Counted from the stretch's first letter, positions 1,761-2,114 are shown. The stretch is DNA of 6,788 bases from a virus (IMGVR_UViG_2724679544_000004); one strand, 5' to 3'. Notes: generated by a model not told the origin, from the letters alone. Program-made: numbers and translations.

Positions 1761-2114
1761 CTACCCCAGATGAGTAATCCGAAGTTCATCCATACCACAG
1801 GTCCTGGCTATTCTGTTGTACTCCTGAACAAGAGCAAATAATTCTGAATTAGCAACCATGAACTCATCGCAAACCCTCTGTATAGCATCACTATTCAGAA
1901 TAATAACGTCTCTTCCCGAAAGACGATCAGGAGTACAGAACAAAACTGTCAAACGGCTGAAGGCCTTTGCTCGTGCTGCATTGACTATATCAATACGCTG
2001 CCTAAGGATGAAACACCCCGACGCCTCATCAATATTCACTCTACCCACACCATATGAATGATAAATACTTAATGCTGAAAAAACCATTAGACCGTATAAC
2101 AAATACTCAATCAA
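1761..2114 (-). CDS. Hypothetical protein (117 aa from a TTG start; 108 aa from the first ATG at 2085-2087), unknown function, immediately downstream of the phage tRNAs
   Basis: Long ORF co-oriented with the late operon. Hydrophobic N-terminus. 6 of 11 Arg codons are AGA/AGG and several Ile codons are AUA. No convincing SD for either start, so coding status is uncertain. Confidence 0.35.
   Translation of the reverse strand: MIEYLLYGLMVFSALSIYHSYGVGRVNIDEASGCFILRQRIDIVNAARAKAFSRLTVLFCTPDRLSGRDVIILNSDAIQRVCDEFMVANSELFALVQEYNRIARTCGMDELRITHLG

Follow-up and report, generated by a model that had tools for sequence, protein, structure and literature searches.

What does a lambdoid prophage carry directly downstream of its late-operon tRNA genes, at the position where Stx2 phages carry the Shiga toxin (stx) genes? 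The question is raised by IMGVR_UViG_2724679544_000004, a viral sequence of 6,788 nucleotides (nt) that is a fragment of a lambdoid prophage with its genes on the minus strand; we refer to this whole stretch of DNA as the window. A first-pass annotation had flagged a 117-codon open reading frame (ORF) with a TTG start (2114..1761, minus strand), co-oriented with the late operon, and had offered three options for it: a moron gene that initiates unusually, a pseudogene or a stretch that does not code at all. The frame is present in the sequence, in the same orientation as Q (3443..2622), RusA, DUF968 and the DUF1737 and holin genes. We are highly confident that it contains a 92-residue gene with a GTG start (2039..1761), which encodes a predicted hairpin protein of PHROG 2873 and lies as late-operon cargo in the stx slot, with a codon usage that follows from base composition. 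The frame and its antisense strand divide as follows:

1761..2039, minus strand: the coding sequence as placed here, with a GTG start at 2039 and 92 codons plus a stop (TAG at 1763-1761).
2040..2114, minus strand: an in-frame upstream extension that evolves neutrally, in which TTG at 2114 and the in-frame ATG at 2087 give 117- and 108-codon versions.
1858..2061, plus strand: an antisense ORF of 67 residues, a chance ORF whose frame has two stops in the window core.

To gauge selection on the frame, three Escherichia coli lineages (the window, L003 and L218), whose proteins are 59–63% identical, were compared pairwise; ratios of nonsynonymous to synonymous substitution (dN/dS) were obtained by the Nei–Gojobori method, and significance by Fisher test. 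The last 279 nt align gapless across all three lineages at 67–70% nucleotide identity, with dN/dS of 0.26, 0.22 and 0.31 in the sense frame (P = 1e-6, 7.5e-8 and 2.4e-5) and with mismatches dominated by third codon positions (24/23/43, 19/21/42 and 24/20/39 by position). The two shifted sense frames gave dN/dS of 0.8–1.4, and of the six frames only the sense frame is free of internal stops in every lineage compared. A similarly low dN/dS (0.22) appears in one antisense frame, which nevertheless contains stops; its value mirrors that of the sense frame, apparently through shared third codon positions. The comparison of synonymous and nonsynonymous change that the first-pass annotation had proposed thus returned in-frame values of 0.22–0.31 in three lineages. 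Intactness was assessed in a sample of loci picked by a 24-nt anchor in the upstream spacer, independently of ORF integrity. Here, where frame-disrupting indels had been named as the sign to look for, the 92-codon core is kept in 107 of the 108 parsed loci. The core is also the least polymorphic of five segments (0.029 variable sites per site, versus 0.057–0.109, among 25 haplotypes); its three synonymous and five nonsynonymous substitutions within the lineage are too few to be informative alone. With purifying selection confined to this one frame in all three lineages, these comparisons indicate that the flagged ORF is a genuine protein-coding gene. The moron-gene option is borne out as far as a real gene is concerned, and selection, intactness and the homologues described below contradict the other two.

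The antisense ORF, which the first-pass annotation had also listed, does occur on the plus strand of the window, but is not conserved: its L003 counterpart lacks an ATG and is broken by an internal stop, and internal stop counts vary by lineage. It has no Pfam, PHROG or NCBIfam match, and we rejected it as spurious.

Where translation starts is a separate matter. A frame with no canonical start and no clear Shine–Dalgarno (SD) sequence had been reported, and the candidate starts do all lack a strong SD, with best SD/anti-SD energies of −0.4 kcal/mol for the TTG, −2.3 for the ATG and −3.8 for the GTG at 2039. A misplaced boundary accounts for most of the apparent lack of a start: the conserved start codon is GTG 2039. 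The start site GTGAATATTGATGA is common to the three E. coli lineages, and although the SD is weak in the window and in L003, L218 has AGGAG 4 nt before the conserved GTG. Distant homologues have an ATG start preceded by GAAAGGA or GAAGGGA, and align to residues 26–117 of the 117-residue frame, beginning 0–3 residues from that point. Upstream of the GTG, constraint disappears: in the comparison of the window with L003, dN/dS is about 1.03 in the extension (proportions of differing synonymous and nonsynonymous sites, 0.46 and 0.47) against 0.26 in the core of the same pair, and polymorphism is 0.067 per site against 0.029. The ATG at 2087 reads AAT-GTG in L003, and in L218 the extension lacks a start codon, is interrupted by an in-frame stop and contains a 5-nt indel that puts the ATG position out of frame. 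Within the window's own lineage, one locus has a frameshift in the extension but an intact core. Given the homologue starts, the shared GTGAATATTGATGA, the neutral extension and the disruptions in L218 and L003, we place the coding sequence at 2039..1761. On this comparative evidence the flagged coordinates overshoot, the conserved coding part being 92 codons plus a stop, and the true start is 75 nt downstream of the one first noted. The extension is most likely a 5′ leader, to judge by the same alignments.

We then asked what family the product belongs to. The 117-residue frame matches PHROG 2873 (E = 2.2e-69, 231 bits) over its residues 10–117, against the full profile (1–108 of 108). A hidden Markov model (HMM) search of 1.84 billion representative proteins returned 22 at E ≤ 1e-3, and a profile search of a 5.8-billion-protein database returned 40, including proteins from Citrobacter, Salmonella, Morganella, Serratia and Xenorhabdus. 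The recovered members are 91–110 residues long, the distant relatives 91–99, and one of their contexts is an E. coli plasmid. Lambdoid prophages of Enterobacterales carry the family, whose core resembles AFSxLxVxYxTPDR...AN.EL..LV.EYN..A. A tblastn search with the Serratia member also matches Sb55 of Salmonella phage ST64B. The remote homology search suggested in the first-pass annotation therefore yielded a family; it yielded no relative in Pfam, in NCBIfam or among solved structures. A scan of Genome Taxonomy Database (GTDB) species representatives found E. coli only, but it needs exact peptide patterns and so does not conflict with the genera found by HMM.

The homologues recur in similar surroundings. 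In Citrobacter, Morganella, Serratia, Salmonella and L218, the gene lies co-oriented between Q (or a methylase gene downstream of Q) and the holin and lysis genes. Apart from this late/lysis region, the neighbourhoods of nine divergent members have no constant partner gene; neighbours vary from AraC-like regulators (in two E. coli lineages), TerB-like plus DUF3927, KilA-N or Rha to nothing. Sb55 and the homologues of 95–99 residues from Citrobacter, Salmonella, Morganella and Serratia belong to the same family by profile search, at 20–43% identity, and like the window gene are co-oriented with late genes near the lysis cassette. They differ in their ATG starts, strong SD sequences and neighbours and are likewise uncharacterized, and Sb55 is in addition placed after, rather than before, the lysis genes. 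The Citrobacter and Salmonella homologues begin about 50 nt after a TATAAT and an intrinsic terminator; in these loci (L088 and L220, about 3880-3955), the TATAAT is followed some 25–35 nt on by a terminator such as CCGCTTCccgtGAAGCGG plus T9. This arrangement resembles a PR′/tR′ cassette set immediately upstream of the homologue.

A 91-residue member lies, unexpectedly outside a prophage, on E. coli Rep3 plasmids (L091–L093, 4001-4276), where it neighbours a K88-like fimbrial operon (PapB, usher); in L091 it is preceded, at a distance of about 580 nt, by a tRNA-Thr(UGU). In a tRNA island of the Serratia prophage (L096 and L097, 3571-3645), ARAGORN calls a tRNA-like gene with a two-base anticodon, 'tt', between a CAU tRNA and a tRNA-Gly(UCC).

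How does the gene fit into the late operon? The minus-strand gene order in the window is relB, relE, hokD, a 92-residue ORF, DUF968, RusA, Q, two tRNAs, the flagged ORF, the DUF3927 gene, DUF1737 and an S21-type holin. Around the gene, annotations by the Prokaryotic Genome Annotation Pipeline (PGAP) and our own scans give the following features:

2622..3443, minus strand: the Q antiterminator gene, which heads the region (Pfam PF03589 Antiterm, E = 6e-55; 'antitermination protein' in PGAP).
2579..2616, minus strand: a PR′-like late promoter read from the sequence, with TTGATT, 16 nt and TAAATT (2616-2589), then a −10-like CATAAT.
2522..2541, minus strand: a tR′-like intrinsic terminator from the terminator scan (7-bp stem with 5 GC pairs, then a T-run), between the PR′-like site and the tRNAs.
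2403..2478, minus strand: an ileZ-like tRNA with anticodon CAU, called Met by ARAGORN and tRNA-Ile by PGAP.
2302..2402, minus strand: a decayed argN, the 101-nt inter-tRNA spacer, which in alignment to annotated argN retains the acceptor-stem ends and the T-arm.
2225..2301, minus strand: an argO-like tRNA-Arg with anticodon UCU (ARAGORN; Rfam tRNA, 68 bits), which aligns to the annotated argO of an Stx2 phage.
2115..2224, minus strand: an AT-rich spacer between tRNA-Arg and the ORF frame, with a polymorphism of 0.091 per site.
1594..1725, minus strand: a DUF3927 or TciB-like gene of 43 residues ('DUF3927 family protein' in PGAP; phrog_1470, E = 2.6e-11), 35 nt past the stop of the coding sequence.

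The tRNA block is about 87% identical to the ileZ-argN-argO block of Stx2 phages. The body of the CAU tRNA is identical in alignment to annotated ileZ of an Stx2 phage; the argN remnant has a scrambled anticodon arm and a 4-nt insertion, and neither ARAGORN nor Rfam at E ≤ 1 calls a tRNA there. Homology with Stx2 phages, in which stxA comes next after argO, stops about 10 nt beyond that tRNA gene; in the alignment to Stx2a_WGPS9 it ends near the 5′ end of the spacer, at what is thus a cargo-cassette junction. The likeness to the ileZ-argN-argO plus stx arrangement put forward in the first-pass annotation accordingly holds for position. The flagged gene has the same position and orientation as stxAB in the order Q, PR′/tR′, ileZ-argN-argO, stx and lysis genes, and both are lower-GC cargo within the late operon (GC content 0.41–0.44 for the gene, versus 0.49–0.54 for Q, RusA and DUF968). 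The two differ in that the product here is a 92-residue helical hairpin and not an AB5 toxin, that argN is decayed in the window, that the rare codons lie within compositional expectation and that the window gene has no shown link to virulence. The gene occurs in one of 50,697 phage records, and the tRNA block in 289 of the same records; the stretch 1300–2650 is at least 80% covered in 1,179 of 5,426 complete E. coli genomes. Placed between the Q/tRNA block and the lysis genes, it is a cargo-type insertion between conserved phage modules. We conclude that the late operon carries the gene as accessory cargo at its head, in the slot equivalent to that of stxAB. What occupies this slot in lambdoid phages without stx bears on how the slot itself is understood.

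Judging from this layout, transcription would come mainly from the Q-antiterminated late transcript. The promoter-like site at 2579..2616, which resembles lambda PR′, scores 8/12; this is under the threshold of our promoter scan, and the scan output does not contain the site. A search for a promoter of the gene's own gave 9/12 consensus matches only, none of them conserved, and in the spacer 2115..2224 the scan turned up only such weak 9/12 matches and no terminator. The gene is not directly flanked by a terminator, and the interval from the tRNAs to the ORF lacks one too; the next is at 1369-1348, after a small RNA match described below. A separate promoter-like sequence (TTGCGA, 17 nt, TATTAT; 9/12) lies at 2488-2516 on the minus strand, between the tR′-like terminator and tRNA-Ile, and, if active, could drive the tRNAs and the downstream genes without Q.

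With gene, start and setting in place, the competing accounts can be weighed. One denies that there is a gene: the frame would be a decaying pseudogene or non-coding DNA, either a chance ORF within AT-rich spacer sequence or part of an RNA element. Consistent with this, PGAP and RAST do not call it, its SD is not strong, the predicted fold of the 485-nt region is slightly more stable than those of shuffled sequences (z = −2.2) and a few deposited variants (P0008, P0009 and P0012) have local frameshifts or deletions. These broken variants, however, are clusters of only one or two member sequences each against hundreds intact, the fold z-score is unremarkable, and Rfam has no RNA family match in 1761–2114 even at E ≤ 1. 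When the frame-specific selection, the open and gapless alignment despite the divergence of the lineages, the near-universal intactness of the anchored loci and the protein homologues with canonical starts in five other genera are added, the chance that no gene exists here becomes negligible. The second account accepts the gene and moves its start to ATG 2087 (108 residues) or TTG 2114 (117 residues), which would give it a lineage-specific extension of 16–25 residues. In its favour, the ATG shares the frame of the gene, 106 of the 108 parsed loci keep the stretch open, the indels there, within the L003 lineage and relative to the window, are of 3 nt, and the 108-residue form is both the PHROG 2873 model and the choice of most gene callers (clusters of 370 and 146 members, on at least 1,000 contigs). 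The neutral evolution of the extension, the loss of the ATG in L003 and L218, the poorer SD energies of both upstream codons and the locus with a frameshifted extension all argue for GTG 2039 instead, as does the fact that every distant homologue begins at the VNIDE-equivalent position. An upstream start is therefore unlikely, although, because the ATG is retained in 106 of 108 loci, the 108-residue form stays a minor possibility for the window lineage.

The third account concerns codon usage. The first-pass annotation had paired an excess of AGA, AGG and AUA codons with the two tRNAs upstream; on this view the gene would be tuned to the phage tRNAs, its expression depending on ileZ and argO as has been proposed for stx. 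The counts themselves were confirmed: 6 of 11 Arg codons in the frame are AGA or AGG (three each) and 3 of 11 Ile codons are AUA, far above the E. coli averages of about 0.06 and 0.08. The two tRNAs are where they had been noted, in the same orientation as the ORF and 110–290 nt upstream of it, with tRNA-Arg(UCU) ending at 2225, 110 nt before the TTG. tRNA-Ile2(CAU) reads AUA after lysidine modification, the same block precedes stx in Stx2 phages, and the exact 3′ end of tRNA-Arg lies within 200 nt upstream in 83 of 119 evaluable spacer-anchored loci. Yet the base composition of the ORF alone predicts an AGA/AGG share of 0.45, against 0.55 observed (binomial P = 0.36), and an ATA share of 0.33, against 3/11 (P = 0.75). 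Equal or stronger bias is seen in homologues without Arg or Ile tRNAs in their vicinity: of the Arg codons in the Morganella gene, which has no tRNA nearby, 3 of 6 are AGA, and of its Ile codons 4 of 8 are ATA. The tRNAs upstream of homologues are also variable (Arg-UCG, Thr, Asn, Gly or none), with a tRNA-Arg(UCG) 2 kb away in the case of L003. In addition, AGG makes up half of the rare Arg codons in the flagged ORF, and a UCU anticodon generally reads it at best through wobble. The proposed pairing thus fails, and tuning to the tRNAs is distinctly unlikely. Base composition and the homologues indicate instead that these codons are abundant because the DNA is foreign and AT-rich, and not as a specific adaptation to the adjacent tRNAs, which may incidentally help translation of the gene.

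What might the protein do? The product (MNIDEASGC...RITHLG) has 92 residues, 10.4 kDa and an isoelectric point of 5.7. It has no hydrophobic segment, and because its Kyte–Doolittle maximum is only 0.94, no transmembrane segment is expected. AlphaFold2, run with a 21-sequence alignment, gave a mean predicted local distance difference test score of 88.6 and a predicted template-modelling (TM) score of 0.75, with helices at residues 3–34 and 50–81 that are predicted to be antiparallel and joined by the conserved TPDR loop. The product is therefore predicted to be a soluble, slightly acidic, antiparallel two-helix hairpin, a topology it would share, with helices of about 30 residues, with prefoldin beta, ROP-like bundles, the TraM anti-activator and HR1 domains. 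On this model, it would act through helix–helix contacts, either self-associating into a helical bundle or binding a partner protein. Fold comparison of the hairpin gave no informative structural match; TraM (2q0o) was among the matches, with a TM score of 0.73 and an E value of 0.64.

One suggestion for a partner comes from two of the E. coli lineages. By analogy with TraM- and ANR-style anti-activators, the protein could act as a small helical modulator by binding a transcription factor, such as a prophage AraC-like regulator of the Psr/AppY type. Such a role would fit the TraM fold match, the position of the homologue 21–130 nt downstream of an AraC-family gene (HTH_18/HTH_AraC) in two of the three lineages, and the documented AraC-like prophage regulators PsrA and PsrB of enterohaemorrhagic E. 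coli (PMC10877973). The known anti-activator and defence families ANR/Aar, TraM and PADLOC gave no significant match, nor did NCBIfam or Pfam; the PADLOC matches were only local, at E = 8e-4 or weaker, inside 550-residue models, and came from a few distant members, not the window protein. We regard the modulator as quite improbable. The broader notion, that the family is an unrecognized class of small coiled-coil effectors that occupy the stx-equivalent slot and bind a host or prophage regulator (such as one of the Psr/AppY type), is a long shot, slightly less probable still; if true, it would link what prophages carry as cargo to the regulation of acid resistance or virulence in the host.

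The AraC-family genes themselves encode 241–242 residues and lie directly upstream of the homologue (L003, 164-889; L218, 3142-3870). They are 59% identical to an annotated helix-turn-helix protein in phage phiSTEC1575-Stx2k and are Psr/AppY-like in kind.

As for its standing in databases, PGAP leaves the gene unannotated in the three RefSeq genomes inspected (two of the window lineage and one of L003), as does RAST in phage mEp460. The exact 92-residue protein nevertheless occurs on 210 contigs in public collections, and the 108-residue form on at least 1,000. AKK54112.1 (92 residues), WP_097292279.1 (the 108-residue variant) and PHROG 2873 are the same gene, deposited as 'hypothetical protein'. 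The gene is thus an already catalogued, uncharacterized conserved hypothetical, and represents an annotation gap, not a new kind of element. The PHROG 2873 model and most deposits use the ATG at 2087, in contrast to the GTG at 2039 favoured by the comparative evidence, which makes the usual deposited start 48 nt too far upstream; the practical value of the result lies in annotation, and nothing here points to an unusual mechanism.

Downstream of the gene, a DUF3927 start motif was found in 95 of 106 evaluable spacer-anchored loci. No segment of the region is more polymorphic than the DUF3927 gene (0.109 variable sites per site, among 25 haplotypes), and in one haplotype it has a premature stop at codon 8. 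A TerB-like gene precedes it in Citrobacter and in the L218 lineage. Just past its 3′ end, 1339-1528 on the minus strand is a strong match to the Rfam small RNA (sRNA) family STnc100 (132 bits, where the gathering score is 47; E = 7e-30), which overlaps the hairpin terminator at 1369-1348. PGAP annotates a partial 'hypothetical protein' pseudogene at this site, on the opposite strand, and the element is also kept in the L003 lineage. Another RNA, sRNA-17 of E. coli K1 RS218, has been described in an mEp460-like prophage, within a 1.15-kb 'intergenic' region (PMC7719688). We considered whether it overlaps the flagged ORF and rejected this, as its primers and sequence are absent from the window and from all retrieved loci.

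The remaining observations concern the rest of the window. An IraM-like anti-adaptor gene (978-1313, plus strand; NCBIfam NF007393, 162 bits; GC content 0.35) is convergent with the late operon; ATA makes up 6 of its 13 Ile codons, a larger share than in the flagged ORF. Positions 1-68 and 6721-6788 form a 68-nt inverted repeat, 96% complementary, that corresponds to the termini of the insertion sequence IS600 (IS3 family), so that a pair of IS600 copies in inverted orientation encloses the whole 6.8-kb prophage fragment. On the left, the S21-type holin gene (327..43) is cut short by the IS600 copy; on the right, ydfV adjoins the other copy. Between hokD and DUF968, the 92-residue ORF at 4878-5156 (minus strand) matches phrog_1212 only from residue 27 on, which suggests that its start, too, may be called too far upstream.
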